Below, in pieces: positions 39,542-63,444 of a DNA stretch of 64,000 nucleotides. Below the pieces are notes generated by a model that worked only from the letters and a program-made list of their open reading frames with translations, made no database searches and was not told where the DNA came from. The DNA is taken from assembly GCA_963701095.1 (NCBI GenBank), contig OY969564.1:1280001-1344000 (forward strand), in the 5' to 3' direction. The DNA is from an uncultured Methanoregulaceae archaeon (GTDB taxonomy: Archaea > Halobacteriota > Methanomicrobia > Methanomicrobiales > Methanospirillaceae). The position numbers were made by a program, and so were the translations under genes. Position 1 is the first letter of the stretch. Each line of letters starts with the position of its first letter.

Positions 39542-39691
39542 AATCTGAAAAGACAATAAAAAAGTCCTTAATTTTCTTTGTGAAAATTCAACGAAAATAT
39601 ACATTTTTCATTCTCCATATCGTGAACCGGATTTCTTTTGGATAACATGATATTTATTGAGCAATAACCTCTACAGCAAGTGCATCCTCGC

Positions 39692-41613
39692 ATGAATTCC
39701 CTAATTCGTACGGTCGCTCTCATCCAGATGAAAGTAGGACCAGATCCGGAAAATAACCTCAAGAAGGCACTTGAGCACGTTGAAAATGCAGGCCGGAACG
39801 GGGCACAGTTCATTTGTCTTCCCGAGCTGTTCCGTACCCGGTACTTTCCCCAGCAGATAGGTGTGCATGCAGAACAGCTAGCCGAGACTATTCCCGGTGA
39901 ATCTACGGAGGCTTTTGCCCGGCTCGCCCGTGATTATTCCGCAGTTATAATCGTCCCGGTCTTCGAACGATCGCTAACGGGGCGATTCTATAATGCAGCA
40001 GTCGTAATTGATGCTGATGGAAATCTTCACCCTCCCTATTACAAGGTACACATCCCACAGGATCCGAAATTTTTCGAAAAAGGATATTTCTATCCCGGAG
40101 ATCACTACGTCATTTATGATACTCAATATGGACGAATAGGCGTTCTTATCTGCTACGATCAATGGTTCCCCGAAGCAGCAAGGTGTGTTGCACTTAACGG
40201 TGCGGAGATCATCTTTTACCCGACTGCAATCGGCAATCCCTGCACCGATCCACCTTCAGAAGGGGACTGGCAGGAAGCCTGGGAACTAATCCAGCGCAGC
40301 CACGCCATCGCAAACAGCGTGCACATAGCTGCTGTTAATCGTGTAGGTCAGGAAGGTAATATCCGGTTTTTCGGAGGATCGTTTGTTTGTGACGCTTTTG
40401 GGAAACTGCTCGGAAAGGCAGGAGATACCGAGGAAACAGTCATGGCAAGAATCGATCTTGGTATAAACGCCACGATCCGGGAGTCGTGGGGATTTTTCAG
40501 GAACCGCCGCCCTGACACGTATGACGCCATAACCGCACGTTTTCCTGATCACGATGCCACAGCGTCGATTCCCCGAAAAGGGGATACTCCAAGAAAACTG
40601 GGCTTTTTCATGCCAGCCGAATGGGAACAGCACGATGCAGTCTGGTTATCGTGGCCGCGAAATAAGAACACCTTTCCCAATCTTACGGCCGTAGAGGATA
40701 TATATATCAGGTTTATTGCAGCAATTGTCCATTCCGAACGCGTCGAAATGTTCGTCCCCACTGCAGCTATAAACAGAGACGTAAAAACACGCCTGAAGAG
40801 CGCCGGGGTAGATCTCTCCGGGTTACTATCCGGACAACATCCTATTCAGACGTATGGATTCGTGATTATGGTCCGACATTTGTGGTTAACCCGGCACTAA
40901 AAAGATTGGCGATGGTTCGTTGGGAGTTTAATGCATGGGGAGAAAAATACGAAGATCAGATCGCAGATGGCTGCATCCCTGGTGAGATGAACAGATCTCT
41001 TGATCTGCCTGTTTTCAGGCCAGGAATTATTCTTGAAGGAGGATCCATTGATACCAACGGGATGGGAACAGTACTAACAACCAGTGCCTGCCTTCTCAAT
41101 CAGAACCGGAACCCGGATCTTACAAAGGATGAGATAGAAGAATATCTTACGGAATATCTGGGTGCAGTAAAAATAATCTGGCTCAACCGAGGTGTTGCCG
41201 GTGATGACACCGACGGACATATCGATGATATCGCACGGTTTGTTTCGCCATCTGTTATTGTCTGCGCATACGAAGAAAACCCAGACGATGAGAATTACGA
41301 GACTCTAAAAGAAAATTATGAGATCCTTGCTAGTGCAACAGATCAGGAAGAAAAACCATTCACGGTTATAAAGCTCCCCATGCCGGCTCCAGTTGTAATA
41401 GGTGATGACCGGTACCCGGCAAGTTATACAAACTTCTTTATCGGTAATACCTTGGTCATAGTTCCGGTCTTTAATGATCCTTCAGACGGAAAAGCGCTTC
41501 GTATAATACAGGATCTTTTTCCGGAAAAGACGGTGATTGGTATAAATGCCCGTGCGATGGTAGAAGGGTTTGGGACGTTCCATTGTGCAACCCAGCAACA
41601 GCCCCTCGTGTAA
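39692..41613 (+). CDS. Fusion of N-carbamoylputrescine amidase-like nitrilase (AguB) and agmatine deiminase (AguA); frameshift at ~40818
   Basis: Nitrilase triad LPELF/YYKVHIP/ICYDQWFPE, then MPAEWE in the same frame; shifted frame DVWIRDYGP, LEGGSI, DDTDGHID, GTFHCATQQQP. Confidence 0.88.
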
Positions 41614-45793: not shown

Positions 45794-46762
45794 TTATCCT
45801 TGTTTTCCAAGAATCCCGGTAATCGCTTCGCCGAACTCCATTGTCCCGGCAGAACCCCCGATATCCCTTGTACGGATGCCGGAAGCCAGTACCTTAGTTA
45901 TAGCTGATTCTATCCGTCCGGCTCCTTCATTGTCCCCGAGATACTCAAGAAGCATTGCAGCGCTCCGCAACGCCGCCACAGGATTCGCGATGTTCTTACC
46001 TGCTATATCCGGGGCACTGCCGTGAACCGGCTCAAAAAGGGCGTACCTGTCGCCGATATTGGCACTCGGGACAAGGCCAAGGCCTCCCACAAGATATGAT
46101 GATACATCAGAAAGGATATCGCCAAAGATGTTCGTGGTTACGATTACATCATAAGCCTCTGGGTGCTGAAGAATATCGAGACTCAGTGCATCGATGAACT
46201 TGTCATTGTAAACTATTCCCGCTTTTTTTGCTTCAGCTATGCAGATGTCACGGAAAAAAACGTCGGATTTGAGAACATTTGCCTTGTGCCCTATGGTGAG
46301 TTTTCCTTTTCGTTGGTGTACACACCGTAATGCTGCTCGTGCGATCCGTTCTGTTCCCCTACGGGTCACGACCCGGAGCGTTGTAGCACGATCCTGTTCT
46401 ATCTCTTCGATCCCCGAGTACAAGCCTTCAGTGTTCTCCCTGACAATCATGATGTCAAAACCGTCACCCCGGATGGGCCTCAAGTTTGCAAACAGATCGA
46501 GCGCTTTACGAATCCGTAGAACAACGCTTTGGTAATCTTTCATCGGCGGTGTCGTTATTGCCCCGAACAGTACGGCATCAGCCGTTTTGAGCGCGGAAAT
46601 GTCGTTATCTTTGCAAGGGCACCCTGTTTGTTCCCAACGCCCATAACCTACCTCTACCGGGAAGAAGTCATAATCGGGATGAAGCAGAAAGAGCACTTTT
46701 TGTGCGACCGGAATCACCTCATGACCGATCCCGTCACCTTCGACTATAGCAATCCGGGTCAT
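45794..46762 (-). CDS. aksF: Homoisocitrate/isopropylmalate dehydrogenase family (probable AksF)
   Basis: GDGIGHEV, RENTEGLY, NIFGDILSD, EPVHGSAPDIAG; in operon with aksA/D/E. Confidence 0.78.
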   Translation of the reverse strand: MTRIAIVEGDGIGHEVIPVAQKVLFLLHPDYDFFPVEVGYGRWEQTGCPCKDNDISALKTADAVLFGAITTPPMKDYQSVVLRIRKALDLFANLRPIRGDGFDIMIVRENTEGLYSGIEEIEQDRATTLRVVTRRGTERIARAALRCVHQRKGKLTIGHKANVLKSDVFFRDICIAEAKKAGIVYNDKFIDALSLDILQHPEAYDVIVTTNIFGDILSDVSSYLVGGLGLVPSANIGDRYALFEPVHGSAPDIAGKNIANPVAALRSAAMLLEYLGDNEGAGRIESAITKVLASGIRTRDIGGSAGTMEFGEAITGILGKQG

Positions 46763-47560
46763 CTTTTCCTCCAAAGGGTGACCAGTTCCCGGACAGACCG
46801 GGCAATCTTTGCGGGATCCGCCCCCCAATGGACTATTGCACCGAACTTATCGTTCCATGTACCGATACCTTCACGTTCGGCCCGGCAGCACCGGGCAATA
46901 AACGGCTCTTCTTTTACCTGTTCCAGAGGACAGATATTTTCGAGCTCAAAATCCGTGCCATAGCATTCGGTACAGAATTGCTTTGCCGTAAGACAACCGG
47001 CGACACGTTCACCCCCCTGAAGAGGATCGGCATCCAGTGTCCGTAGATAACCCGCGGCCCTGCAGGGATAAACATCAGCAGGGACTAAAGTGATGTCACG
47101 GATATGATAGTCAAACGCTACCGAGAGTTCTCCGAAAAGTCCGATTGCCTCCATTTCCATAAGGCTCGCCGAAAGGGTCGGACGGGGCGGAATGACATCG
47201 TAGATGTGAATCGTGAGGAATCCTGACAGATCCGGATCAAGTACAAATGTTACGTGCTCATCAATACCTGTAAAAATGGTACACCGGTGCCCGCTTTCAG
47301 ATGCGAGCCGGACCAGCCGGACCCTGTCGTTGAGCTGTACTTTCTCCGGGAACCAACAAACTTCTTCGGGAGTCGCCAGAATCTTGGAGGATATAACTTT
47401 CCTCATAACACTTTTCAGCTGCCGGATCAAGAGTAACTTCAAGTATCTCGTATCCCCGATCCGTCTCATGCAGAAGATAACGGCTCAAGGCATAAACAGC
47501 ATCACCACAAGGCCGTGTCGATGCCAGTCCCACGTATTTACATTGTTCCGGGAAGATCAC
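46759..47560 (-). CDS. Cys-rich hypothetical protein in aks operon; frameshift at ~47413
   Basis: GTG start overlaps the aksE stop ([11 protein letters not shown]...); C-terminal YPCRA, GCLTAKQFCTECY, NICP, RCCR. Confidence 0.75.
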
Positions 47561-48028
47561 CGGCGAGCCCTCCAGTATTTCACAAGGCCACCAGCCATTA
47601 GGATCTCCTGCATCCGGGGTGACAGCGGGCAAATAGTATATCGTTTTCCTCTCGACTCTACCCATCCACCCGAAAGGTCAAATTCAATCGTGCTTCCTTC
47701 TCCACAGGTAAGATCCGATTCGATAAGCGGAAGGCCTATGTTAATTGCATTCCGGAAAAATATCCGGGCAAATGAGGGGGCAATAACGGCAACCACTCCG
47801 GCCTCCCGTAAGGCAAGAGTCTGCCTGTTCCCGGGATGAGCCACACCCGAAATTTTTGCCAGCGACAATCACGGCACCTTTGAGACGAGGGGCAAGCAAA
47901 GGATCGAGATCTTCGAACACGTGAGTCGCCCAGACATCATAATCCTTGGTCCGTAAGTACCGGCCGGCAATTATAACGTCGGTATCGATATCCGCCGGGA
48001 GACATACGGCTATCCCTCTCCCCCGCAT
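47557..48028 (-). CDS. aksE: Homoaconitase small subunit; frameshift at ~47820
   Basis: [14 protein letters not shown] (YLRT loop typical of methanogen homoaconitase), [27 protein letters not shown]. Confidence 0.85.
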
Positions 48029-49239
48029 TATCCTACCTCCGGTGATGTCATTTCGCCTTCGAGAGCGCTTGCCGCTGCCGTTGCAACGGATCCGAGGTAA
48101 ATTTCTCCGCCAATACCCATTCGGTTTTTAAAATTCCTGTTTGCCGTTGATAAACAGACTTCGCCTTCTCCAAGTACCCCCATATGGTAGCCAAGGCAAG
48201 GGCCGCATCCTGGCGTTCCGATGGTGCATCCGGAACCGACGATATCTGCGAGTACGCCTGTCCGGATTGCTTTTTCGAGAATTGAGGCTGAAGCCGGGAC
48301 AACGATGGTCCTCACGGCAACTTTCTTTCCCCGGACCAACCGGGCAAATCTGGCGAGATCAGAATACCGGCCATTTGTACAGGTGCCGACAAAGACCTGG
48401 TCGATTGGCACACCTGCTACCGCATCTACGGGTTTTACCGTGTCCACACGGTGAGGTACAGCGACAAGGGGTACGATATTGCTGAGATCGAAATCGAGTT
48501 CCCTACGGTATATACAGGATTCGGGTTCCTGACACAACACATCATGTCCATGCTCCTTCAGGAAACGGATAGTAACGTCGTCTGAATAGAAAAGCCCCGT
48601 TTTTGCCCCTGCTTCGACAGAAAGGTTTGCAAGAACGAGACGTTCATCCATGGACAGGTAGTGCACGCCTTCTCCCACAAACTCAAGTGCATCATAGGTC
48701 GCACCGTCAGTACCGAGTTTACCTATGTAGGCAAGCGCCAGATCCTTGGCTTCCGCAGCTCCCGTCAACCTGCCGGTCAGATTGATACTGATTGATTCAG
48801 GAACCCGGAACCAGGTTTCACCGGTCAGCCAGATGGAAGCCATATCGGTTGCGCCCACGCCGGTTGCAAACGCTCCGAACGCACCCATCGTAACACTGTG
48901 GGAGTCAGCACCAACAACAATCTCACCTGGCAGTACAATACCTTCACTCATCAGCTGATGGCAGATACCACAGCCAACGTCGGAGAACTGCATAGACGAT
49001 CTCTTCGCAAAATCCCTGAGATCATGCTGGAGTGCCGCCGTTGTACTATTATTGGCAGGGGCTATATGGTCAAACTGAATATAATATCTGGTATCTTTTC
49101 CCAGCCGATCTCCACCCATATTTTTCCATGCCTCTAGTGCAAGGACACCGGTTCCGTCATGGGCATATGCCCTGTCAACTTTCCGGTCTACATATTCCCC
49201 AGCAGATGCACCAAGAATACGTTCGGAAAGGGTACTCAT
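48028..49239 (-). CDS. aksD: Homoaconitase large subunit
   Basis: [47 protein letters not shown]. Confidence 0.85.
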
Positions 49240-50366
49240 ACTGTAGTCTCCCGTTGTACCCGTCGGATCAGTTTCTGGAGAATTTCAGGGGTAATACTGC
49301 ATTTCTGTTCGGAATGTTCCTTGACAAGATCCAGCACCCGGCATATCTGGGCCTCTGATAGTTCCTCGCCAAGTGAAGCAATAATGTGTTCGAGCGCCTT
49401 TCTCCCGGTATGTTTACCAAGAATAAAGTGACGTTCGCCCCCTACAAGGGCTGGGGGGAAGTACTCGTAGGTTGACGGATCTTCAAGAATTGCCGCAATA
49501 TGAATGCCACTTTCATGCGAGAATGCAAGATCTCCGGTTATCGGTTTGTTTTTCGGAAGCATAATGCCCGAATATTTTTCCACTTTTTTGGAAAGTCCTG
49601 ACAGGTGTGAAAGATCATACCGGTCTATCCCACCTTTTGTCCGGAGGATTACCAGCACTTCCTCCAGTGCTGCATTACCAGATCGTTCGCCTATACCGTT
49701 GACTGTCGTGTGGAGCTGGAAAGCACCGGCCTGTGCGGCAGTAACCGTATTTGCGACAGCACATCCCATATCGTTGTGGCAGTGAGCGCAGAATGGACGA
49801 TCAACAGAAGAGACAAGATCTGTCATAATCGTTCGCATCTCATCCGGGATCAGGCATCCTACCGTATCCGCAAAACTGAGCAGGACAGCCCCGTGATCAG
49901 CTGCACGCCGGTAAACTTCCTTGAGAAAAACAATATCGGTCCGGGATGCATCCTCAGCCGCAAACCTAACAGCAACCCCGTGGTCCCTGGCGAAATCGAT
50001 CATGGAAAGGGCATCTTCTAGTACTTTTTCGCGAGGTTTTCGGAACTTAACCCGGATATGGAGATCTGAAGTGGGGATAAAGATGGAAACCATATCAACA
50101 CCGCAGTCTATGGCTGCTGTGATATCCTCTTTCCTTGCCCTTGCAAACCCGCAAATCCGTGCATCAAGCCCGAGATGTGCGATCGTTTTTACGCACTGTT
50201 TCTCGTTTTCAGAAACTGCCGGGAACCCGGCCTCTATCACTTCAACACCGACAGCATCAAGTGTTCGGGCGATATCAATTTTTTCTTCGCAGGAAAACGA
50301 CACACCGGGTGTCTGTTCTCCGTCTCGCAGCGTTACGTCACAGATTTCAATATTCCACGGTTTCAT
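49236..50366 (-). CDS. aksA: Homocitrate synthase-type 2-oxoacid acetyltransferase
   Basis: DVTLRDGEQTPG, HCHNDMG, NGIGERSGNA, HESGIH. About 376 aa and lacks the LeuA/CimA regulatory domain. Confidence 0.82.
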   Translation of the reverse strand: MKPWNIEICDVTLRDGEQTPGVSFSCEEKIDIARTLDAVGVEVIEAGFPAVSENEKQCVKTIAHLGLDARICGFARARKEDITAAIDCGVDMVSIFIPTSDLHIRVKFRKPREKVLEDALSMIDFARDHGVAVRFAAEDASRTDIVFLKEVYRRAADHGAVLLSFADTVGCLIPDEMRTIMTDLVSSVDRPFCAHCHNDMGCAVANTVTAAQAGAFQLHTTVNGIGERSGNAALEEVLVILRTKGGIDRYDLSHLSGLSKKVEKYSGIMLPKNKPITGDLAFSHESGIHIAAILEDPSTYEYFPPALVGGERHFILGKHTGRKALEHIIASLGEELSEAQICRVLDLVKEHSEQKCSITPEILQKLIRRVQRETTV

Positions 50367-51618
50367 GATGAGCTCCTTTTGGGCACTGTGCTTCGACCAC
50401 AACTGTTAACGGACCATCCGGGTAGCGGATAATATCACGGAGGCGACTTTCATCTTCAGCGGGACAGATTTCCGGGTCTGCCCAATCGATGTAGCGGGCA
50501 GGATTACTCACGGGTTGGCCTCCAGTCATCGCGGCGCAGTGATTGCTCATAACAATACACAAGAGGGAGAGCCTTTTTTCATATACATCGATAAGGGCAT
50601 TGAGACCGGAGTGGAGTAGTGCATAGTCACCTATTAGTGCCACATGAGTACTCCGTGCCGCAACCGCAATACTCGAACCCATCCCATAGCTCGCAATCCC
50701 CAGTTCGTACGGTGGGTTCATCACAAAAACCGAGCACCCGGCATCACATATCAGGCGCATTCCTTTTTCCCTGAGGATACCAAGGAGGGGTTTATAAGGA
50801 CACACGGCACAGAAAGTCCGGCCAAATCCCCGTTCTTCCAGTGATTCCGGCCTTTCCTGTTGAGCCGGGGGTGCATGAGTTCGATGATCCTGTACAAAGG
50901 ATCGGCCGTACTCATTCACCTTCGGAAACGATGCAACACGCTCTGGTACCGGATTGACTGTCACGAGTCGGGAAACCCCCGGTGCAGGACCTGCACCGAG
51001 AATTCCTCCCTTCCACTGGTTCAGGGGTGACATTTCCGACCACATAAACATCGTGCGGTAAGTTTCCTCTGCCGCAGTAACTCTACCGTGCATTGTCCAG
51101 GACTTGTCGGCAAGCTTTCCTTTTCCCTGATGCCGGGGAACGGGGGTACCTGAGATCTCAGCGTCTAACAGATAATGTGTAAGCCGGAGCATGGCGACAC
51201 GGGAAAATCGTTCCGATGCCTCAAGGGCTGATTCTACACCGGTAAAACAGGTCTCGTCGTCAGGCTCAATTACGGGAAGCTCTGCCAGTTCCCCGTAATA
51301 CCGGGAATCCTGCGCTGTCTGGGAACCTTTGGCTTCAGGATCGTCACCTACAACGAGAATGATGCCTTTTTCGATACCTTGTACTGATGCCTGGGCAAGG
51401 GGGTCAGCACACGCGTTCACTCCCACATTTTTTATTATAACTGCAACGCGTTGACCGGAGAGGGAATCACCAAGCGCATACTCAAGTGCCGTCTTTTCGT
51501 TGATGACCAACTCGGCACCGGTTAATGTGCCAAGTTCTGTTACCGGAAAACCTGGAACGGTATATTGACGGTCAGTACCTGCACGTATTGCCCGAGCCAG
51601 CGCTTCAGCACCTTTCAT
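50347..51618 (-). CDS. ThDP-dependent enzyme, truncated IorA-like
   Basis: VPGFPVTE, INEKTALE, KNVGVNACADP, FCAVCPY, CDAGCS, GDYALLHSG...N..AMTGGQP; no ferredoxin domain. Confidence 0.85.
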   Translation of the reverse strand: MKGAEALARAIRAGTDRQYTVPGFPVTELGTLTGAELVINEKTALEYALGDSLSGQRVAVIIKNVGVNACADPLAQASVQGIEKGIILVVGDDPEAKGSQTAQDSRYYGELAELPVIEPDDETCFTGVESALEASERFSRVAMLRLTHYLLDAEISGTPVPRHQGKGKLADKSWTMHGRVTAAEETYRTMFMWSEMSPLNQWKGGILGAGPAPGVSRLVTVNPVPERVASFPKVNEYGRSFVQDHRTHAPPAQQERPESLEERGFGRTFCAVCPYKPLLGILREKGMRLICDAGCSVFVMNPPYELGIASYGMGSSIAVAARSTHVALIGDYALLHSGLNALIDVYEKRLSLLCIVMSNHCAAMTGGQPVSNPARYIDWADPEICPAEDESRLRDIIRYPDGPLTVVVEAQCPKGAHHETVEY

Positions 51619-52582
51619 TCGTCCCTCCCGGGCACAAGGTCGCAACCCCCGCAAACCGTGCACATGGTCAGCGCACTTGAAGTGTCAAGTCCGTTACGGG
51701 ATAAAGCCCGGCTGTGTTTTGCAAAGAGTTTTTTGAGTCTTTCAGCCGAAGGCCGTGATTGTCCCGCATACCCTGCAACCGGATTAAGAGGTCGAAGCAC
51801 CGGGATCACGCCATGAGATGTGAGTCTATCGATACAAGCCTCCATTTCTTCGTCGGTTTCACCGAGCCCGACAATTACATTGGAGAAAACCCGGCCTTTC
51901 CCGAAGAGTTCCACGGAACGATCAAGAATCCGCCAGAGGAGTTCATAATCGAGACCCGGGCACACTGCTTCAAAGAGGTCAGGTGTTGCAGCCTCAAGAT
52001 TAAATTTTACTTCCGCTACTCCAAGGGCATGGAGCTTGTCTGGAGTCTGATCTGTCGGGTAGATGGAGACCCCAAGAGGCAGGCCAAAGAACTTCAAATG
52101 ATCGATAACCTCACAAATGTAATTCTCCTCCTCTTCAATACTATCATAAACGCCGCTTGTCAGCGATATGGCACTCACACGGTGCCGGACGGATTCGACG
52201 AGATCCATAATTTCTTCTATAGTCTTGCGTTTTCCCGAGAGCCGCGGAACTGAACAATAGCGGCAGGAGAATATACAACGTTCTGTAACTGTGATAAATG
52301 CCTGATCCGGGCAGTGAAGCCCCGCCGGAGGAGTCTACCGGAGATCTGGCGATCGCCTAAATACAGATCGGCAACTCCATCACCCCGGTGAATAATTTCG
52401 ACTCGGGAGGTTTGGTTAATGGCCAACTTTACCCGGTGGCCGCCCATAGCAAAAAAAACCGAACCCTTTCCGCCGGCACCGGGTCCGGCAGTAGATTTTG
52501 CAATAAATTCATCGGCAGCTTCTCCACTAAGACGGGCAGAACCGGTCTCAAGTAACAAGGCCTTTAGATCTTCCCATTGCAT
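51615..52582 (-). CDS. Radical SAM protein (biotin-synthase-related type); frameshift at ~52328
   Basis: Rejoined frame HCPDQAFITVTERCIFSCRYC (CxxxCxxC), SNVIVGLGET, C-terminal CTVCGGCD. Confidence 0.88.
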
Positions 52583-53460
52583 AATTTGAGTGCCTCCTCA
52601 TAGCGGGTATAAAATGGCAGGGCAGTTACTGCCCCGGTAATTCCTCTACCGTCCATGACTATGTGAAGAGAGGGATCATCAATTTCCCTGACAAGATCCG
52701 GTGTCACTTCCCCCCGTTTGACTTTTCTTGCGTAATCCAGCAGCTCTTGTGATGGGGTAAAACCCGTATAAACCGCCATTCCGGTCTTTTCTGATAGGGT
52801 ATATCTTTGGAGAAACTCGCTAAACTTACTGATGAGAGATTCCGGTTTTGTGGTACCAAATTCAGCAACGAGACTTACACAATTCTTTGTCCGAAATGCT
52901 ACCGGGAAGAGCTGGACAATCGTATGCGACAGGTACGAGGTGTGTTCATCTTCGACTGCACGTGCAAGGTTATGGACAAGCGTCCACGTTGCACCTTCTT
53001 CAGATGTATCGGTGTCGTCCACTCCGATAAGCACCCGCTGACGCCGGGGCAGCCAGAGCGTCGCAGCTGCTACTTTTCCTCCGCCGGCTGGATCACAGTG
53101 TTCCCGCAGTACTCCACGGGCCGCAGCACGGCAGGATGTGGCACCGACCCCACCCCCGCCCATACCAATATAAGTGACCGCTATTTCATCTCCCGAAACG
53201 GATACCCCTGAGATACCTGCAGGGAACCTGGATCCTTCCAGTGCGAGATTCTCATTACCAGGATGTAGCAGGAACCGGGTTGTTCCTCCCACGCACCTGA
53301 CATTCTCAACAAGTGGGCTCTTGGCGTAATGGTGTTGGGTCCACATCGCACCGCCTATACAGTCAAAAAATTCGACTAACTCGACTTTGCTACCGGTATC
53401 ATCTGCCATCGCCACGATCTGGGGATACCTGATGATATAAGGTTCAGAGATGTTCACCAT
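52564..53460 (-). CDS. Methanogenesis marker protein 11-like (TiaS N-terminal-like domain)
   Basis: PYIIRYPQIVA, VEFFDCIGGAMW, GMGGGGVGA, IGVDDTD...GATW, QLFP...TKNCVS, GRGITGA. Confidence 0.8.
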   Translation of the reverse strand: MVNISEPYIIRYPQIVAMADDTGSKVELVEFFDCIGGAMWTQHHYAKSPLVENVRCVGGTTRFLLHPGNENLALEGSRFPAGISGVSVSGDEIAVTYIGMGGGGVGATSCRAAARGVLREHCDPAGGGKVAAATLWLPRRQRVLIGVDDTDTSEEGATWTLVHNLARAVEDEHTSYLSHTIVQLFPVAFRTKNCVSLVAEFGTTKPESLISKFSEFLQRYTLSEKTGMAVYTGFTPSQELLDYARKVKRGEVTPDLVREIDDPSLHIVMDGRGITGAVTALPFYTRYEEALKLCNGKI

Positions 53461-54400
53461 ACAGACCCGCCGCCTCAATCCCCCGGTTCCCCCAGAGCAC
53501 TGCACCTAACGCACCAATCCTTCCCTTTCTACCGTTCCTGTCAAGAAACTCGACACCCAGCCTCCGGGCTTCCCGCTCAGTATCTTCAAGAGCAACAATC
53601 TCGGTTTTGATAGTCTTATGCATCGGGGACTCCTCAACTGTCCCAATTCCTCGGACCACTGCAATTCCGGTATCATTCGAGAACGTATGCTCTTCTATAA
53701 ATGAGCGAACAAATTCGCAAAGCGGCCCAGTGCTCCCAGGACGGGTGGCGAAATTGAGTGCGGAACACACGCAGTTTGTAGTTTTATGAGGGACTGCAGG
53801 GTTAAGCTGGACAAGACGCATACCGAGGAATTCCACACCTTTGATACGACATGCTTCAGCACATTTGAGTGCTGTAACCCATGTCGCACCTTCCTGTTTG
53901 GTATCCGTATCGTCAATGCCGAAACAAACTTTCTCGTACCGGGGGGTTACGATTCTCACGTGATTTATCCGGGCGCCGCCTATTTTCAGATCATCTTCGG
54001 AGGGATATTCCGACCGGAGGACTCCAGGAGCCTGCGGAAGGCATGCAGCAATGCCGACACCGGCACCGGCAATTCCCACCCAGGTTGTCATGACCTCGTC
54101 ATCTTTTACTTCAACTGCTTCCAGTGCCTGTCCCCCAATCGTTTCCGACGCTGCCCCGAAGTTGATCGCATGTCTGCCGAAGCGTGCCCTCATCGTCATC
54201 ATTTTTCCTTCAACATTGCACGCGATCATTGCACCACCTGCACGAGATCGGTTCATGGCATCCCACTCTATTGTTCCCCGGGCATGGCACTGCTCAAGAA
54301 TTTCAGCAAGCCCTGTCTTTTCGTCGACCATTACCAAAAATTTCTTCGAGAAAAGCTGGCCAAACCGTTGCTTGACATCATCCGGAGTAAGTATGATCAT
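53444..54400 (-). CDS. Second marker-11/TiaS-like paralogue
   Basis: GIAGAGVG, FGIDDTD...GATW, VQLNPAVPHKTTNC, GRKGRIGALGA. Confidence 0.75.
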   Translation of the reverse strand: MIILTPDDVKQRFGQLFSKKFLVMVDEKTGLAEILEQCHARGTIEWDAMNRSRAGGAMIACNVEGKMMTMRARFGRHAINFGAASETIGGQALEAVEVKDDEVMTTWVGIAGAGVGIAACLPQAPGVLRSEYPSEDDLKIGGARINHVRIVTPRYEKVCFGIDDTDTKQEGATWVTALKCAEACRIKGVEFLGMRLVQLNPAVPHKTTNCVCSALNFATRPGSTGPLCEFVRSFIEEHTFSNDTGIAVVRGIGTVEESPMHKTIKTEIVALEDTEREARRLGVEFLDRNGRKGRIGALGAVLWGNRGIEAAGLYGEHL

Positions 54401-54482: not shown

Positions 54483-55367
54483 TTAAAGAACGTTGGAAAG
54501 TTCGATCTTGAACGGTCCAAGAGTGCCGCCAAAATTACCAGCCGAGATAAATTTTATGCCGGGAACTTGCACTGCAGCCTTGATACCTGCTCCCATCGCA
54601 GCAGCCACACTTTTCTCATCGATACCATCGATAACAATTTCATAGACTGCTTTGACACCGGCGGGAACCTTGCTGTCCGAAACTTTCTCACGGAGTGTGG
54701 GACAGTATTTCTCATTAGTCGATGCAGTCATGAATTTGTACTTCAGACTACCGACCTTTGACCCGCTTGCCACGATGCCCCCGGGGAAACTTGTAATGAC
54801 ACCTTTTACATCCGCGATGGCATCCGATGCCGCTTGGGCTGCCATGAGCGCTGCCATCTGGTTCTCTCCCATGATAAAGAAGTTACCACCGGCAACACCT
54901 TTTACAATGCCAAATTCTTCTTCGCCGATATATTCGCCGTTCATGATCGGGATCACCCAGCATTTCCTGCCACCAACTTCTTTCTGATACTCGTACCCGT
55001 CACCAAAGAAATGGAGTTTTACCGGGATCTTTTCCTCAGCAGTGGTGATACCGTTGAATACTGCTGTAGTAGGTGCAGTTAGTACGCATTCGGCAAGACG
55101 TTCGACGACCTGCTCTTTGAGTTTCTTCTTGCTTGCACAGATGAGAATCGAAACGCCCGGCCTTCCATCGGGCGTCTCGCTGCCGGAAAGGACGCTCTCA
55201 ATACCTGCTTCGCAAGGGCAGCCAATCGCAGATGTCGCAAAACCGGTGGCTTCCGTTGCCGCCTTAAGTGCCCAGTCTTTTGTTACTGCGGTGATAATAA
55301 CCCGGCAGACCCAGGTAGGGAATGCCTCCGCGTAGGTGTTGTCAATTGTTACGCCATTAATTTCCAT
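54483..55367 (-). CDS. ftr: Formylmethanofuran:H4MPT formyltransferase
   Basis: MEINGVTIDNTYAEAF, TGFATSAIGCPCEAG, TPDGRPG, FPGGIVASGSKVGS, ISAGNFGG. Confidence 0.97.
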   Translation of the reverse strand: MEINGVTIDNTYAEAFPTWVCRVIITAVTKDWALKAATEATGFATSAIGCPCEAGIESVLSGSETPDGRPGVSILICASKKKLKEQVVERLAECVLTAPTTAVFNGITTAEEKIPVKLHFFGDGYEYQKEVGGRKCWVIPIMNGEYIGEEEFGIVKGVAGGNFFIMGENQMAALMAAQAASDAIADVKGVITSFPGGIVASGSKVGSLKYKFMTASTNEKYCPTLREKVSDSKVPAGVKAVYEIVIDGIDEKSVAAAMGAGIKAAVQVPGIKFISAGNFGGTLGPFKIELSNVL

Positions 55368-55932: not shown

Positions 55933-57106
55933 ATGGCATTGTTTCCAAAGTTTTCCAAAAAGAGGGATGGTGTCAACGTTGTGATGGAGCAGCGTCTCCT
56001 CCAGAACGTGAACAACCTGATTTTGAATTCAGAGACCTGCACGGGATGCGGTATCTGCGTCGAGTCGTGTCCTGAGGATGCTATTGTCCTCGGACTTGTC
56101 GGTGCAGCCCGCCGGGGTGCCATTAATTATGCGACGCCGGTCGATATAGACGAGACTAAGTGCTCGGTACTGCGGTGTTTGTGTCATAATGTGCCCATTC
56201 AATGCATTGACTCTGAAAGTTGACAATCAGGAGCGGCTTCCCATAGTTGAAAAAGAGGGATTCCCGCAGTATGACATGAAGGCAGAGATTGATGAAGAAA
56301 AATGCGTAAGGTGCACGATTTGTGAAGAGGTCTGCCCGCGTGACGCAATCGATCGTAATGTTCCTGCATACGAAGGGACCTATAAGGGACCGGTTGCCGG
56401 AGCAAAGGATCGCCAGACGGCACTTACAGCAAAGACCACCTTTACGGTAGATAAGGAGAAATGCACTCTGTGCGGTATCTGTGGTGCACTCTGTCCTGCC
56501 ATAAGGGTCAAGCATAAGGAATTTACTGCTGCGAGTGGAAAAGTCGAGGGCGATGTGATCTGGGATGAGACCAAGTGTGACGCATGCAAAGTGTGTGTAG
56601 AAGCCTGCCCTGAAGAATGCATCACCGTTGAACGCGAGGTCATCTCGGATAAGGTAAGTGGCAAAGTCACCATTATACAAGATAACTGCTGCACATGCAC
56701 GTGGTGCTCGCGCAATTGCCCAACTGAGGCAATTACGGTCGAGAAAATCTTTGAAGGCGATATAGAGTTCCATGCGGAAAAATGTCCCGGTGGTTGCTCG
56801 ACCTGCGCAGAAATATGTCCAGCAAATGCGATCTATCTTCCAAGTGAGAAACCAGCAGCAGAGATGGGGCACAATATTGAACCCACCATCGCAGTTAACA
56901 AGGATTATTGCATTCTGTGCGGTGCCTGTGTTGATGCTTGCCCCGGTGAAGACATTATCGTGCTTCAACGTACTGGTATCCGGATGAAAGGCACGGAAAC
57001 TGATCTCTTCAAGAAGATCAAGGAGAAGCTCTTTACGAAGAGAACCTCGAAGGTGAAGGAAGGTATTGCCGGTCAGGTCGGACTAAAAATGATGGAGAAG
57101 GCGTGA
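55933..57106 (+). CDS. fmdF: Polyferredoxin subunit F of formylmethanofuran dehydrogenase; frameshift at ~56166
   Basis: About 8 CxxCxxCxxxCP motifs across ORFs 55933..56223 and 56189..57106; adjacent to hdrCBA-mvhD. Confidence 0.88.
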
Positions 57107-57118
57107 GGGAGGACGAGT

Positions 57119-57700
57119 ATGGCAAAAACAAAAGGTTACCCGGAAGCGCTGGAGAAAAAACTCCACGATCAGCGGTATTACCGTGAAGACTCGAATCCTG
57201 ACTTTATTAAGAAAGTCGAAGGGAGTTCACGAACCATCGCCCATATGTGCTATCAGTGCGGCACCTGCACCGGCTCGTGTCCTTCTGCACCTAGAAGTAC
57301 CTACCGTATCCGCAAATTCATGCGGAGAGCTGTTCTTGGGCTTGAGAATGAAGCGCTCACCGATCCAGATCTCTGGCTCTGCACCACGTGTTACAGCTGC
57401 ACCGACCGTTGCCCCCGTGACATTGCACCCACTGATGTTATAATGTCCATGAGGAACATGGCATTCACCCGCGATATTATACCGGTGAACTTCCTCAAGA
57501 CCGTGCAGGCAATCTATAGTTCCGGCCACGGTGTGCCCAATAATGACGTTAACCGTGCAGCCCGGGAAAAACTCGGACTCACTCGCGACCCGCCGACCAC
57601 TCATATGTACCCTGAATACATGCCGGCCATCAGGAAGATCATCGACCACTACAACCTCAAGGCAAATGCCGACCGGATTGTCAAGGAACGGGAGGGATAA
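57119..57700 (+). CDS. hdrC: Heterodisulfide reductase subunit C
   Basis: CYQCGTCTGSCP and WLCTTCYSCTDRCPR. Confidence 0.95.
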   Translation: MAKTKGYPEALEKKLHDQRYYREDSNPDFIKKVEGSSRTIAHMCYQCGTCTGSCPSAPRSTYRIRKFMRRAVLGLENEALTDPDLWLCTTCYSCTDRCPRDIAPTDVIMSMRNMAFTRDIIPVNFLKTVQAIYSSGHGVPNNDVNRAAREKLGLTRDPPTTHMYPEYMPAIRKIIDHYNLKANADRIVKEREG

Positions 57701-57706
57701 GAGAGC

Positions 57707-58630
57707 ATGTCAGAATCCAAAGCTAACCATACGTTCGCGTTATACCTTGGCTGTATTGCACCGAACCGGTACCCGGGTGTAGAATCCGCGTCCATCAAAG
57801 GATTCAAGAAACTGGGTATCGATCTGGTCCCCCTCAAGGGAGCAAGCTGCTGCCCGGCCCCCGGTGCGTTCGGTTCCATCGATCTGAATGTTTTTTACGC
57901 TATGGCGGCACGCAACCTTGTACTCGCCGAACAAATGAAGACTGATATTGCCCTGGTCTGCAACGGCTGCTACAAGTCAATCTGGGAAGTTAACCACAAA
58001 CTCAAACACAACAAGGATCTCCGCGATAATGTCAACGAAGTACTCAAAGAAGTTGACATGGAGTTCAAGGGAACTATCAACGTCTATCACGTTGCCGAGC
58101 TTCTCTATAACGACAAATTTGCAGGAGTCGCTAAAATCAAGGACACTGTGGTAAATCCATTGACCGGTGCACGTATTGCCGTCCACTACGGCTGCCACCT
58201 TACCAAACCCCACAAGGACCGGGAGTTTGAAAAGGAGGTCATGTTAAACACCGAGTGTCCGACTTGGATGGAAGAGCTCGTCGCAGCCATTGGTGCAACA
58301 CCGGTTGAGTACCGCAACAAGATGCAGTGCTGCGGCGCCGGTGGTGGCGTCCGCGGTTACGATATCGTCCACTCGCTGGATATTACCAACGAGAAGCTGA
58401 TCAACCTTAAAGAAGCAAAGGTGGATGCATTAACCGATATCTGCCCATTCTGCCAGCTCCAGTTCGACCGCGGCCAGATCGAGATCAAGGAGAAATTCGG
58501 TGTAGAGTACAATTTACCAGTACTGCATTTTGCAGAGCTCCTCGGTCTTGCACAGGGAATGAGCCCACAGGAACTCGGGCTTGACCTGCACGGAATCAGC
58601 TGCGAACCATTCCTGCAGAAGGTGCTGTGA
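57707..58630 (+). CDS. hdrB: Heterodisulfide reductase subunit B
   Basis: CCG domains: LGCIAPNRYPG, SCCPAPG, CNGC, HYGCH, CCGAGGG, CPFCQLQFD. Confidence 0.97.
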   Translation: MSESKANHTFALYLGCIAPNRYPGVESASIKGFKKLGIDLVPLKGASCCPAPGAFGSIDLNVFYAMAARNLVLAEQMKTDIALVCNGCYKSIWEVNHKLKHNKDLRDNVNEVLKEVDMEFKGTINVYHVAELLYNDKFAGVAKIKDTVVNPLTGARIAVHYGCHLTKPHKDREFEKEVMLNTECPTWMEELVAAIGATPVEYRNKMQCCGAGGGVRGYDIVHSLDITNEKLINLKEAKVDALTDICPFCQLQFDRGQIEIKEKFGVEYNLPVLHFAELLGLAQGMSPQELGLDLHGISCEPFLQKVL

Positions 58631-58640
58631 GGTGGTAAAG

Positions 58641-60806
58641 ATGGTCGAAAAGAAGAAAACAACTACCAAAAAGACCGAGACCAAGAAACAGGATACCAAA
58701 AAGCAGGAAACTAAAAAGGAGGCTCCCGTGAAACAGGTAGTTAAGAACCAGGATCCCGCACCGGTCGCAAAATCTGTCTCAGCACCAGGTTCAACAACGA
58801 AACAGGAAGCACGTATCGGTGTCTTCATCTGTCACTGTGGAACCAATATCGCCGGGTCAATGGATATCCCGGCCGTGGAGGAATATGCAAAGACCCTCCC
58901 GAACGTAGCCTATGTTGACAATTACAAGTACATGTGCTCGATGCCAGGGCAGGCTGTGATCAGTAAGGCAGTCAAGGAGAACCACCTTACCGGTGTCGTA
59001 GTTTCTGCATGCTCGCCCCGTCTTCACGAGCCGACCTTCAGGACTGCGACAAAGGAAGCCGGCCTGAACCCGTTCCGGTTCGAAATGGCAAACATCCGTG
59101 AGCAGAACTCGTGGGTGCACATGCACGACCGTGAAGGTTCAACCGAAAAGGCCAAGGATGCGATCAGGATAGCAGTAGCAAAGGCAGCACTTCTTCAGGA
59201 TCTCTTCCCGAAGACCGTGCCCGTTGAGAAAGCGGCGATGGTCGTCGGCGCAGGTGTCGCAGGTATGCAAGCAGCCCTTGACCTTGCAGCAGCAGGTATC
59301 AAGACCTACCTCATTGAATCCGATATGAGCATCGGTGGGCGCATGTCCCAGCTCGACAAAACTTTCCCGACACTAGACTGTTCGCAATGTATCCTTACTC
59401 CGAAGATGGTGGATGTCGGCAGAAGCGATATGATCGAACTCATGACCTGGTCCGAAGTCCATGAAGTCGAAGGGTATATCGGTAACTTCGATGTTACCAT
59501 CCGCAAGAAAGCACGTGGTGTGTTGACACCCAAGGAAGCGGAAGCTCGTGGTATTATCGGCGGCGGCTGTAACGGTTGTGGTGACTGTGAGACAGTCTGC
59601 CCGGTTATCAAGCCCAACGAGTTCGAAGTCGGCATGAAGCCGAGGAAGGCTATCTACATCAATCACCCACAGGTAGTCCCCCTTCTGTATACGATTGACT
59701 TTAATTCCTGCATCAAATGCGGACTGTGTGTGACCGCTTGTGGTCCCGAGAAGAAGGCAATCGACCTCGAATCAAAGGACGAATTTATCAAGGTCAAGGT
59801 AGGAACAGCAATCCTTGCCACGGGTTACGATATCTTCCCCATCGAGAAAAAAGAGGAATGGGGATACAAGCGGTTCGAGAACGTCATCACGAGCCTCGAA
59901 TTCGAACGGCTCATCTGTGCATCCGGCCCAACCGGCGGTCAGCTCATCCGCCCGAGCGATGGTAAGACCCCCAAACGCGTGGCCTTCGTACTCTGTGCAG
60001 GATCGCGTGACAACACCGGTATCGGAAAACCCTATTGTTCCCGGTTCTGTTGCATGTACTCATTAAAGCACGCGCACCAGATCGCCGAGAAGATCCCCGG
60101 ATGCATTCCCTATATCTTCTATATGGATATCCGTTCGTTCGGCAAAGCCTACGAGGAATTCTACTACCGCATACAAGACGAAGGGACAAAGTTCATCCGC
60201 GGACGCGTGGCAAACATCCTCGAAGACTCCAAGACCAAGAACCTCCACGTCTATGCCGATGATACCCTTCTTGACCGCCCGGTCGATATGGAAGTAGATC
60301 TTGTCGTACTCGCCGCCGCAATCGAGCCAAAAACAGATACAAACAGGACCAGGAAACTCTTCGGTGTCTCCTGCTCAATGGATGGATGGCTCCTTGAGGC
60401 ACACCCGAAGCTCAACCCGTGCGGAACCACCACAGCCGGTGTCTTCCTTGCTGGTGTTTGCCAGGGTCCCAAAGATATCCCTGACACGGTAGCATCTGCG
60501 GAAGGTGCAGCATCCGCGGCAAGTATCCCGATTCACAAGGGAGAAGTGGAACTCGAACCGTACTTTGCAACCTGTATTGAGGAGAAATGTGCCGGCTGCG
60601 GTATGTGCGTGAACCTCTGCCCCTATAGCGCTCTTGCGCTCGTGGAAAAAGACGGAAGAACTGTCATGCAGGTTACCGAGGCCAAATGTAAAGGCTGCGG
60701 GACCTGCGGAGGATTCTGTCCTGGTGGCGCAATCTGGATGAACCATTTTGCAACACCGCAGATCGTTGCGCAGATCGATGCGTTCCTGCTCGGAGGTGAG
60801 CAGTAA
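58641..60806 (+). CDS. hdrA: Heterodisulfide reductase subunit A with Lys/Thr-rich N-terminal extension
   Basis: RIGVFICHCGTNIAG, CSPRLHE, GAGVAG, LDKTFPTLDCSQC, CSRFCCMYS, QGPKDIPD. Confidence 0.97.
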   Translation: MVEKKKTTTKKTETKKQDTKKQETKKEAPVKQVVKNQDPAPVAKSVSAPGSTTKQEARIGVFICHCGTNIAGSMDIPAVEEYAKTLPNVAYVDNYKYMCSMPGQAVISKAVKENHLTGVVVSACSPRLHEPTFRTATKEAGLNPFRFEMANIREQNSWVHMHDREGSTEKAKDAIRIAVAKAALLQDLFPKTVPVEKAAMVVGAGVAGMQAALDLAAAGIKTYLIESDMSIGGRMSQLDKTFPTLDCSQCILTPKMVDVGRSDMIELMTWSEVHEVEGYIGNFDVTIRKKARGVLTPKEAEARGIIGGGCNGCGDCETVCPVIKPNEFEVGMKPRKAIYINHPQVVPLLYTIDFNSCIKCGLCVTACGPEKKAIDLESKDEFIKVKVGTAILATGYDIFPIEKKEEWGYKRFENVITSLEFERLICASGPTGGQLIRPSDGKTPKRVAFVLCAGSRDNTGIGKPYCSRFCCMYSLKHAHQIAEKIPGCIPYIFYMDIRSFGKAYEEFYYRIQDEGTKFIRGRVANILEDSKTKNLHVYADDTLLDRPVDMEVDLVVLAAAIEPKTDTNRTRKLFGVSCSMDGWLLEAHPKLNPCGTTTAGVFLAGVCQGPKDIPDTVASAEGAASAASIPIHKGEVELEPYFATCIEEKCAGCGMCVNLCPYSALALVEKDGRTVMQVTEAKCKGCGTCGGFCPGGAIWMNHFATPQIVAQIDAFLLGGEQ

Positions 60807-61261
60807 ATGTCAGCACCTGGCGACTTTAAAATCCCAGAAAGAGGCCCCGGATACTGGCAACCCAAGATCCTCGGTATGGTCTGCAACTGGTGTTCCTACG
60901 CAGGAGCGGATCTCGCTGGTGGCGGACGTATCCAGTACCCCCGGATATAAGAATTATCCGTGTCATGTGCACCGGTCGTTTCGACTCCCTCTTTGTTCTC
61001 AAGGCATTTGCCGATGGGGCGGACGGCGTACTCATCTCCGGATGTCACTTTGGAGATTGCCATTATCTTGAAGGCAACTTCAAGTCGGCAAAGAGAATGT
61101 TCATGGTAAAAAGGCTTATGAAGAGCATCGGCCTTGACGACCGACGGTTCCGGATGACGTTTGTCTCTGCATCAGAAGGTGCAAAATGGGCAAAAGTCGT
61201 TACCGACGTTGTAAATACCGTCACGGAGCTCGGGCCAAGCCCGCTTACGGAAAACAAATAA
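60807..61261 (+). CDS. mvhD: MvhD [2Fe-2S] subunit; frameshift in C-run at ~60940
   Basis: [36 protein letters not shown]. Confidence 0.93.
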
Positions 61262-61490
61262 ACAGACAAACCTTTGCAAACTCTGTCAAAAACCAATATT
61301 TTTTATAAGAAGCGCATCGAAAAACGAGTGTTTTTTCTATTTTTCATATCAAAAATTGTTACGTTATTAAAAAAACGTCACACTGCGTAAAATAAAGAAA
61401 GCGCAGATATATGTTATATTTGAACATTCCTTCATTTTTATGTAATATTTTTTAAGTAGTATAAAATGATTTTACGAGATAAAATCGGAA

Positions 61491-61502
61491 CCCTTATAAG
61501 GG
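61491..61502 (+). promoter_or_regulatory. Probable mcr promoter TATA element within palindrome CCCTTATAAGGG
   Basis: Palindromic TTATAA core ~150 nt upstream of mcrB, preceded by an AT-rich region. Confidence 0.4.
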
Positions 61503-61643
61503 GAAATTGGGAATTAATCAATGTCCCGATTAAGGGGACGTGCAATAGTGACTTTCATTCATTACCAGTGACTTCTGTTAGTGACTACCAGTGTTCAGAA
61601 ATCGTACGGTATAGCATTTATAACCAGATTTGGAGGAAATTAC

Positions 61644-62957: not shown

Positions 62958-62973
62958 ACCCTCCAGGATACGA

Positions 62974-63444
62974 ATGACTGAAGCCACGTTCCCCCAGTGC
63001 AGGATAGTCACAGAGCGACTGCTTAATCCAGAGACTACCGAACTAATACTGAACAAAATTGTCGAGATCCCAGGTATCCGGCGAATGGTTCTCAACGGAC
63101 CACGTCTGCCGGTTACAATTACTTACGGGCCCGCAAAAGGACTTGCCAACCCCCATATAATGAGGAAGGCGATTCATGTCGGTGACCAGGAAGTGGATCT
63201 GCAGGTTCATGTGGGTACGGTACTCCTCGAGATTGAAAACCGCGACGTTATTCCCGCACTGAAGGCCGCATGCGAACAGGTCTTTACCAATTTTACTTTC
63301 CGTATTCAAGAAGGGAAATTCATGAAGACCGAACCGTCACTTGTTGATTACTGCAAGTACGGACCGGATGCGGACAAATCTATCCTTGGCCTTGCCGATC
63401 CAAGCAGCAAGTCCAGGCCCACTATCATTCAGGGAATTAAATAA
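62974..63444 (+). CDS. mcrD: Mcr operon protein D
   Basis: RLLNPETTE, GPRLP...YGPAKG, PSLVDYCKYG; position after mcrB. Confidence 0.95.
   Translation: MTEATFPQCRIVTERLLNPETTELILNKIVEIPGIRRMVLNGPRLPVTITYGPAKGLANPHIMRKAIHVGDQEVDLQVHVGTVLLEIENRDVIPALKAACEQVFTNFTFRIQEGKFMKTEPSLVDYCKYGPDADKSILGLADPSSKSRPTIIQGIK

Follow-up and report, generated by a model that had tools for sequence, protein, structure and literature searches.

Within a 64,000-nucleotide (nt) stretch of the genome of an uncultured Methanoregulaceae archaeon (contig OY969564.1, positions 1,280,001 to 1,344,000; hereafter the window), nine genes on the minus strand are arranged as a single overlapping series between positions 45794 and 54400. 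The host genome is a single contig of 2.63 Mb with a completeness score of 86%. From first to last, the genes encode a TiaS-like protein (paralogue A), methanogenesis marker protein 11, a radical SAM protein, an IorA-like thiamine diphosphate (ThDP) protein, AksA, AksD, AksE, a cysteine-rich protein of family DUF7714, and AksF (Table 1). This order had been given in an earlier note made from the sequence alone, and the family searches agree with it. Start codons were set by agreement with relatives. All eight junctions overlap, by 17, 19, 4 (ATGA), 20, 4 (ATGA), 1 (TAATG), 4 (GTGA) and 4 (ATGA) nt in gene order, again as previously described. We suggest that the operon probably makes coenzyme B (CoB) in this lineage, the five genes other than aks turning 2-oxosuberate into 7-mercaptoheptanoyl-threonine phosphate; which protein would carry out which step we infer from the sequences.

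CoB is the electron donor of methyl-coenzyme M reductase (MCR); practically all methane formation by organisms therefore depends on it, as does the anaerobic oxidation of methane and alkanes. In Methanocaldococcus jannaschii, AksA, AksD/AksE (HacAB) and AksF convert 2-oxoglutarate to 2-oxosuberate. To our knowledge, the enzymes of this chain have been known for more than 20 years, and those for decarboxylation, thiol formation, threonine coupling and phosphorylation have not been identified. Labelling and extract work by R. H. White reportedly traced the route from 2-oxosuberate through 7-oxoheptanoate to 7-mercaptoheptanoate, which is coupled to threonine with ATP and then phosphorylated with ATP. 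Aks enzymes of the M. jannaschii type are also cited in PMC11176372 and PMC11619418. The former describes a Methanocellales archaeon that lost mcr and aks; a search of its supplements for marker 11 by name returned TiaS proper only, and the gene may stand there under another label. That the late steps have no firm gene assignment, as the earlier note held, agrees with the accessible text of PMC12068725, where they were still called unknown in May 2025. A literature search in which subscription journals were not covered found no paper assigning the five extra genes.

Conservation of gene neighbourhoods was followed in the host's phylum, the same 201 genomes being used for the profile of every gene, with M. 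jannaschii and Methanosarcina acetivorans as controls. Families f1 to f6 constitute the host's own order, Methanomicrobiales, and the remaining genome groups carry the labels f7, f8 and so on. Our guess is that f7 is Methanosarcinaceae-like, f10 Methanothrix-like, f14 Methanoperedens-like, f24 Methanocella-like, f15 ANME-1-like, f12 Methanoliparia-like, f20 Syntropharchaeia-like and f8 Archaeoglobi-like. All 12 genomes of the same genus are collinear over the entire 8.6 kb, the match running over several short contigs in two of them (G011 and G012), and the nine genes are clustered in 8 of 8 genomes of the same order. A scan of genome contigs for related loci gave 80 among the matches listed, all from Methanomicrobiales.

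Outside the order the cluster is found in parts, and these parts recur; counts per family refer here to the loci fetched rather than to all genomes of a family. The DUF7714 gene lies beside aksE or aksF in every locus fetched (f7 6/6, f24 2/2, f10 2/2, f14 3/3, own order 3/3). Its position is aksE-DUF7714-aksF in five of six f7 loci (the sixth has aksE-DUF7714 only) and both f24 loci, and aksE-aksF-DUF7714 in f10 (2/2) and f14 (3/3). The IorA-like gene is directly 3' of marker 11 in f7 (5/5) and f24 (2/2) and near it in two of three f14 loci, and it adjoins aksA in f10 (2/2) and f14 (3/3). Altogether, five family groups have it beside marker 11 or aksA. Marker 11 abuts a radical SAM gene in the own order, in two of three f14 loci, in f8 (3/3) and in one of two f16 loci. 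Recurring adjacencies in varied gene orders thus form a chain from aks to all five extra genes, much beyond what chance would give. Neighbourhood conservation had been proposed in the earlier note as a check, and by this check the five genes are tied to aksADEF in several families of the phylum.

Table 1. Genes of the operon, adjoining genes of the window and loci of paralogue C. Positions are those of the window unless a genome or locus handle precedes them.
Feature	Position	Strand	Length and matches
TiaS-like paralogue A	53444-54400	-	318 amino acids (aa); TIGR03280 190.6 bits (below 255.8); Pfam TiaS_TCKD 55 bits (cut-off 27)
methanogenesis marker protein 11	52564-53460	-	298 aa from ATG at 53460; TIGR03280 331 bits (cut-off 255.8)
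radical SAM protein	51615-52582	-	321 aa when intact; CX3CX2C and C-terminal CxxCxxC
IorA-like ThDP protein	50347-51618	-	423 aa; TIGR03336 144 bits (cut-off 650.9); TPP_enzyme_C 30.9 bits (cut-off 21.9)
aksA-like (homocitrate-synthase family)	49236-50366	-	376 aa; HMGL-like 280 bits, HCS_D2 80 bits
aksD/hacA-like large dehydratase subunit	48028-49239	-	403 aa; hacA_fam TIGR01343 459 bits (cut-off 385.7)
aksE/hacB-like small dehydratase subunit	47557-48028	-	halves match HacB2_Meth positions 12-75 and 71-156
DUF7714/XcbA-like Cys-rich protein	46759-47560	-	266 aa when intact; GTG start in GTGA overlap; PF24830 243.5 bits (cut-off 25)
aksF-like homoisocitrate dehydrogenase	45794-46762	-	322 aa from ATG at 46762; Iso_dh 303 bits; AksF2_Meth 328 bits (cut-off 540)
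ftr (formylmethanofuran:H4MPT formyltransferase)	54483-55367	-	NCBIfam PRK02114 446 bits (cut-off 297)
FwdF-like polyferredoxin, hdrC, hdrB, hdrA, mvhD, mcrB, mcrD	55933-63444	+	TIGR03290 215, TIGR03288 457, HdrA2 806, TIGR03257 626, TIGR03260 168 bits
paralogue C, own genome	G000:C1:238153-239259 = L115:6954-8060	-	
paralogue C, further locus	L117:6964-8079		
paralogue C, further locus	L118:6665-7780		

Three of the nine genes are broken by one base each in the window, which had been overlooked earlier, although gene content, order and overlaps were described correctly. The radical SAM gene (968 nt) is split into open reading frames (ORFs) of 121 and 197 aa, the CX3CX2C motif (CIFSCRYC) being in the frame of the downstream ORF; aksE (472 nt) is split into ORFs of 95 and 103 aa; and the first ~60 codons of the Cys-rich gene (802 nt) are in a different frame. 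None of the three lengths is divisible by 3. Contigs from four short-read runs of one study, one of which may be the source sample, were compared with the 8.6-kb stretch. In all four runs they differ from the window by exactly three indels, each of which restores a frame: one base less at 47416 (Cys-rich gene), one less at 47820 (aksE) and an extra G behind 52323 (radical SAM gene). Besides these indels, the window has T and the contigs of all four runs have C at 48376 and 52626, which might be either substitution errors or strain differences.

All nine genes are open in the relatives L006 and L007, and genes unrelated to the operon are broken as well. In the window, adjacent ORFs match consecutive parts of one model at a CshA-like helicase (6266-7632), an esterase (12229-13193), an amidase/agmatine deiminase pair (39680-41613) and a FwdF-like polyferredoxin (55933-57106), and these four are probably additional single-base assembly errors; a LeuC paralogue elsewhere in the host genome is split too. 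Because the short-read contigs correct exactly the three sites, relatives are intact and unrelated genes are also split, we conclude that the breaks arose in assembly and that the organism itself has an intact operon. Taken at face value, the frame breaks of the window would make the radical SAM gene, aksE and the DUF7714 gene true pseudogenes of a decaying operon. This is exceedingly improbable and was rejected, given the single-base corrections with no other indel in 8.6 kb, the splitting of unrelated genes, and a completeness of only 86% for a single-contig genome of 2.6 Mb.

To judge from homology and paralogue number, AksA, AksD/E and AksF would extend 2-oxoglutarate to 2-oxosuberate. The aks genes of the operon are an extra paralogue set: the host genome has three loci of LeuA type, of which aksA is the third, and two of LeuC type. 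The aksD product scores above the cut-off of the broader hacA_fam model (Table 1).

The ThDP protein belongs to the ThDP enzymes by its PF02775 match, and residues G329, D330 and N358 are invariant in its alignment. It has Pyr and PP domains, a GDY...N motif and four invariant cysteines (C269, C272, C294 and C411), which might form an Fe-S cluster site next to ThDP. Against the IorA model TIGR03336, the operon's form scores 142-144 bits and those of other families 217-327 bits, all below the cut-off of 650.9. Neither a ferredoxin domain in the protein nor an IorB-like or CoA-binding partner gene was found in the loci annotated, and a comparison with PDB sequences gave nothing at E <= 0.01. The earlier note described this protein as a ThDP decarboxylase; with its four invariant cysteines it is of the IorA/2-oxoacid:ferredoxin oxidoreductase type, and not obviously a plain decarboxylase. 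It is a candidate 2-oxosuberate decarboxylase. In two of three annotated f7 loci (L013:12182-13171, L015:12214-13230) the gene for methanogenesis marker 12 lies just past the IorA-like gene on the opposite strand; in the host genome it is ~70 kb from the operon.

The radical SAM protein matches its superfamily model PF04055 (cut-off 29.5) with 49.2 bits for the intact orthologue from L007 and 29.8 bits for the C-terminal piece in the window. In the alignment, CX3CX2C is invariant, with wider spacing in f8 and f16, and so is a C-terminal CxxCxxC. Scores against LipS2 (63.5 bits for the L007 orthologue, cut-off 270), LipA (28.2, cut-off 203) and BioB (21.1, cut-off 225) are all too low for membership. 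The protein, a "sulfur insertase" in the earlier note, is only remotely like LipS2, LipA and BioB, below every cut-off. A protein atlas search returned only clusters of the protein's own kind, one with the automatic name "biotin synthase-related". The proteins beside marker 11 in f8 and f16 are 22-24% identical to that of the operon. Homologues in f15 (~40% identical) lie beside an Amidohydro_2 gene in three of three loci (L130-L132), rather than beside aks or marker 11, and were not counted as orthologues.

The role of the Cys-rich protein, left unspecified in the earlier note, can be narrowed. Membership of DUF7714 (PF24830, cut-off 25) is clear even for the broken window copy (Table 1), and the intact orthologue scores 291 bits. 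The XcbA family model NF052538 is matched with 59.4 bits (E 3e-16, positions 67-290 of 293) by the window copy and with 43.5 bits by that of L007, below the cut-off of 150; the similarity supports distant homology to XcbA, not membership of its family. Five cysteines are invariant in the DUF7714 alignment. In the available part of PMC9457059, XcbA of Xanthobacter autotrophicus Py2 is a [2Fe-2S] protein that reduces sulfoethanethioaldehyde to coenzyme M (CoM), the last step of bacterial CoM synthesis. The homology thus points to thioaldehyde reduction, and DUF7714 is a candidate 7-thioxoheptanoate reductase. Its predicted structure, with a predicted local distance difference test (pLDDT) score of 91.3, had no Foldseek match in the PDB at E <= 0.001, and a wider structure search gave generic alpha/beta matches only (Z <= 7.7, residues 113-266).

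Marker 11 matches TIGR03280 over model positions 2-292 of 292. Paralogue A forms a separate paralogue group that scores 180-214 bits against the same model in the own order, f14 and one f8 genome, and its translation has a DDTD...GATW motif. Both proteins exceed the cut-off of 27 for the TiaS TCKD domain (PF22641), with 55 bits for paralogue A and 48 bits for marker 11. By contrast, scores of 36.7 and 49.3 bits against the TiaS equivalogue (cut-off 600) cover the TCKD/FLD part only. The two ATP-dependent ligase/kinase folds of the earlier note correspond to this TCKD domain, the scores being far too low for TiaS itself. An AlphaFold model of marker 11 (L007 orthologue, pLDDT 89.6) aligned in Foldseek with TiaS 3AMT at E 5e-7 over 163 columns, with a root-mean-square deviation of 3.1; the probability was 1.0 for 3AMT, 4RVZ and 3U02. 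In a profile search, IGVDDTD of marker 11 aligned to the start of the Pyrococcus furiosus TiaS fragment 3U02. The N-terminal ~135 residues contain an invariant Gly-rich loop, and Foldseek found no clear match for this domain, only weak rows such as aspartate-kinase regulatory domains (probability 0.3-0.6). In the TiaS reaction, a carbonyl oxygen is reportedly phosphorylated with ATP so that an amine can attack, and a threonine is phosphorylated as well. Paralogue A is a candidate ATP-dependent kinase or ligase. Predicting marker 11 and the radical SAM protein as a complex gave a score of 0.00, which, lacking controls, is evidence neither way.

A third marker-11-like protein, paralogue C (369-372 aa), bears on the chemistry of this family. 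Its gene overlaps or abuts a homoserine dehydrogenase gene in the own genome, in one f9 genome and in one f20 genome (Table 1), and it is found in all sampled Methanomicrobiales, f9 (4/4), f20 (2/2) and f14 (15/15). In genome profile searches canonical thrB was not found in Methanomicrobiales, f9 or f20. Paralogue C is a candidate for a non-orthologous homoserine kinase. Its distribution is not strictly complementary to that of thrB: f14 has both, and f7, f8, f10, f12, f15 and f24 have neither. The overlap of paralogue C with homoserine dehydrogenase in three distant genomes without thrB suggests that the marker-11 family may phosphorylate hydroxy-amino acids, and the threonine phosphate of CoB would call for chemistry of this kind. 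Directly upstream of marker 11 in three of three f14 loci (L021:6144-9602, L022:774-4232, L023:14905-18400) are cobD (threonine-phosphate decarboxylase), cbiB, cobS and cobY, suggesting, in this single family, a second tie of marker 11 to threonine-phosphate chemistry.

From these proteins a pathway can be proposed. The IorA-like protein, with its predicted [4Fe-4S] site, would remove C1 of 2-oxosuberate and leave a product at the level of the C7 aldehyde (7-oxoheptanoate). Sulfur would then be added to that carbon, with the radical SAM protein and its extra three-Cys site as the candidate donor; marker 11 may assist by activating oxygen through TiaS-like phosphorylation. The XcbA-like DUF7714 protein, as a predicted iron-sulfur protein, would reduce the resulting thioaldehyde to 7-mercaptoheptanoate, as XcbA does for CoM in Xanthobacter. 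Finally, marker 11 and paralogue A might perform the two ATP steps, formation of the threonine amide and phosphorylation of the threonine hydroxyl. Either assignment of the two proteins to these steps would fit, and marker 11 could act in the sulfur step or in this last one. Lineages without DUF7714 may use COG1900 proteins instead.

A wider proposal, less likely than not in our estimation, is that the marker-11 family consists of small-molecule kinases and ligases for hydroxy-amino acids, with the TiaS kinase domain as their base. The amide and phosphate of CoB threonine would be made by marker 11, together with paralogue A where that is present, and paralogue C would be the homoserine kinase that seems to be missing from Methanomicrobiales and other thrB-less archaea. 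The thiols of archaeal CoB and of bacterial CoM would both come from homologous XcbA-type thioaldehyde reductases. An IorA-derived decarboxylase and a radical SAM sulfur donor with its clusters would then complete the list of CoB enzymes.

Several results weigh against a role in CoB synthesis, or confine it. We take the idea behind the marker 11 family to be that it is present if and only if the genome has MCR. With presence scored only above the TIGR03280 cut-off of 255.8 bits, marker 11 was found in 102 of the 201 genomes and mcrA in 115. When genome rows of both profile searches were tallied, marker 11 was in 91 of 115 mcrA-positive and 11 of 86 mcrA-negative genomes, and the rule "only and always with MCR" does not hold. 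The 24 mcrA-positive genomes without it are all those of f12 (5/5), f15 (16/16) and f20 (2/2) and one of f10, whose copy runs off the end of a contig; such genomes must still have CoB. Five mcrA-negative carriers are 94-99% complete (G065, G075, G083 and G090 of f8, and G077 of f17), and in two of these (G065, L016:8626-11593; G083, L017:8687-11814) marker 11, at 338-364 bits, abuts a variant radical SAM gene beside a gene for a thioredoxin-reductase-like flavoprotein.

The other extra genes are more restricted. DUF7714 is in 93 of the 201 genomes (all of f1-f7, f14 and f24, and 23 of 24 in f10) and in the M. acetivorans control, which also has marker 11; no match came from the M. jannaschii control or from f8, f12, f15, f16 or f20. 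At E <= 1e-25, the radical SAM protein is in 98 genomes; besides the families with DUF7714, it occurs in f15 (7 of 23 genomes) and f12 (1 of 5). The Methanoregula-type ThDP protein (E <= 1e-30) is in 33 genomes of the own order and f24 only, diverged forms of f7, f10 and f14 being detected by tblastn on loci; like this ThDP type, paralogue A is lineage-restricted. The sample represents class I methanogens by M. jannaschii alone and lies outside Methanomassiliicoccales and Thermoproteota. The aks products fall below the specific models (HacA_Meth 411 bits against 550, HacB2_Meth 73 and 78 for the two halves against 230, AksF2_Meth 328 against 540, and LEU1_arch (AksA) 440 against 484.75), and the four cysteines retained from oxidoreductase-type relatives mean that a simple non-oxidative decarboxylation by the ThDP protein is not assured. 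In the accessible text of PMC12068725 (2025), genetics points to the COG1900 proteins MMP16 and L-ASST for the CoB thiol.

Judged by the earlier note's own refuting condition over the 201 genomes and the controls, a universal role is refuted for DUF7714, paralogue A and the ThDP type, and weakened for marker 11. The nine-gene set is a lineage-specific solution, in which only marker 11 has a wide distribution; some CoB steps must be carried out by different enzymes in other archaea. Thus, the view that the extra genes supply missing steps of CoB synthesis keeps its linkage to aks and its fitting predicted chemistries, but not its generality.

Two other readings of the operon have to be considered. 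One would leave only the IorA-like protein and DUF7714 in the 2-oxosuberate/CoB branch, and give marker 11, paralogue A and the radical SAM protein a role in the post-translational modification or maturation of MCR or its partners, their place in the operon reflecting the clustering of methanogenesis genes. The window's operon does adjoin hdr and mcr. Marker 11 is beside the thioglycine genes ycaO-tfuA in both f10 loci and in locus L018 of f8; in locus L025 of f16 it lies 850 nt upstream of mcrB. These neighbourhoods also fit a role on MCR and count to that extent against one in CoB synthesis. Paralogue A is unlinked from marker 11 in f14, where it abuts the gene for marker 4/MtxX, a phosphate-acyltransferase-like protein, in three of three loci (L111:6133-7942, L112:6939-8733, L113:6120-7917), and in an mcrA-positive f8 genome (L114:5860-10341) an A-like gene lies between ftr and the genes for marker 8 and an A2-like ABC ATPase. 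Set against this are the occurrence of marker 11 with a radical SAM partner in complete genomes without mcrA, its absence from the 23 mcrA-positive genomes of f12, f15 and f20, and the translationally coupled overlaps that continue as far as aksA. The ThDP 2-oxoacid enzyme, moreover, follows directly upon marker 11 in two families, and would have no place in protein modification. We regard a role on MCR as rather unlikely.

Even less probable, in our view, is a different product made from 2-oxosuberate or a shorter 2-oxoacid. This could be pimelate or pimeloyl-CoA for biotin, with oxidative decarboxylation and a BioB-like radical SAM protein, or another thiol cofactor that also occurs in non-methanogenic relatives. 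The oxidoreductase type of the ThDP protein, with its Fe-S site kept, the "biotin synthase-related" cluster name with the weak bioB match (21 bits), and the grouping of marker 11, a radical SAM gene and a thioredoxin-reductase-like gene in mcrA-negative genomes would all be in keeping with such a product. However, no bioF, bioA or bioD genes were seen in the loci annotated, the bioB, lipA and LipS2 scores are far under their cut-offs, and the ThDP protein has no CoA-binding subunit or domain. In addition, DUF7714 is homologous to a thiol-forming reductase, and its distribution, like that of the radical SAM family and of the linkage to aks, follows the mcrA-bearing families. CoB synthesis, as a pathway of this lineage, is the reading that we prefer.

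The surroundings of the operon are those given in the earlier note. The ftr gene is upstream on the same strand, separated by 82 nt, and may be co-transcribed with the operon; it is also 5' of the cluster in the same-order loci L028-L030. Beyond it, the genes for polyferredoxin, hdrC, hdrB, hdrA, mvhD, mcrB and mcrD are divergent and belong to steps that use CoB, and a genome search placed mcrA just past the end of the window. The HdrA2 model is covered by two ORFs at 58581-61261, one matching positions 1-640 and the other, MvhD-like and 84 nt downstream, positions 674-774. They might be separate genes or reflect another frame break.

The operon and its recurring neighbourhoods provide a short, concrete list of genes for the late steps of CoB synthesis, with orthologues in the genetically tractable Methanosarcina, and these steps are therefore directly testable; M. 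acetivorans has marker 11, DUF7714, the IorA-like gene and a homologue of the radical SAM gene. If the proposal is true, the list would name genes that are required when MCR is to be made in active form in heterologous hosts, and would offer methane inhibitors new targets. The links of DUF7714 to XcbA, and of the marker-11 family to homoserine dehydrogenase, give uncharacterised families a testable chemistry.

Each of the operon's proteins can be set beside a known system. M. jannaschii AksA, AksD/AksE and AksF belong to the same four enzyme families as those encoded here, and in the host they form a set in addition to the leucine genes. In contrast to M. jannaschii, the host genes stand in one overlapping operon with five others, and they score below the Methanococcus-type equivalogue cut-offs. 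IorA and the ThDP subunits of 2-oxoacid:ferredoxin oxidoreductases share with the ThDP protein the Pyr and PP domains, the GDY...N motif and four cysteines with cluster-type spacing, whereas the operon's protein lacks the ferredoxin domain and, in its Methanomicrobiales form, ~100 residues of the middle domain. LipS2, LipA and BioB also combine a radical SAM core with a second three-Cys cluster site, but the protein of the operon has a unique N-terminal domain of ~90 residues, and its second motif, the C-terminal CxxCxxC, is placed elsewhere. TiaS (PDB 3AMT, 3AMU, 3AU7 and 4RVZ) and P. furiosus 3U02 have in common with marker 11 the fold of the kinase domain (TCKD and part of FLD) and the N-terminal DDTD; marker 11, however, has a domain of ~135 residues at its N-terminus instead of the OB-fold and zinc-ribbon RNA-binding part.

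For formation of the thiol there are two comparisons. MMP16 (ComF) and L-aspartate-semialdehyde sulfurtransferase, both of COG1900, have the same proposed task, conversion of an aldehyde to the thiol of a methanogen cofactor, and the authors of PMC12068725 suggest that these enzymes may be used in CoB synthesis too. The operon encodes no COG1900 protein, and its own proteins come from unrelated families. For XcbA, similarity to DUF7714 extends over nearly the whole family model, both proteins are Cys-rich, and the type of reaction proposed for DUF7714, thioaldehyde to thiol, is that of XcbA. DUF7714, however, is archaeal and lies among aks genes rather than CoM genes, and its substrate would be a C7 carboxylate instead of a sulfonate.

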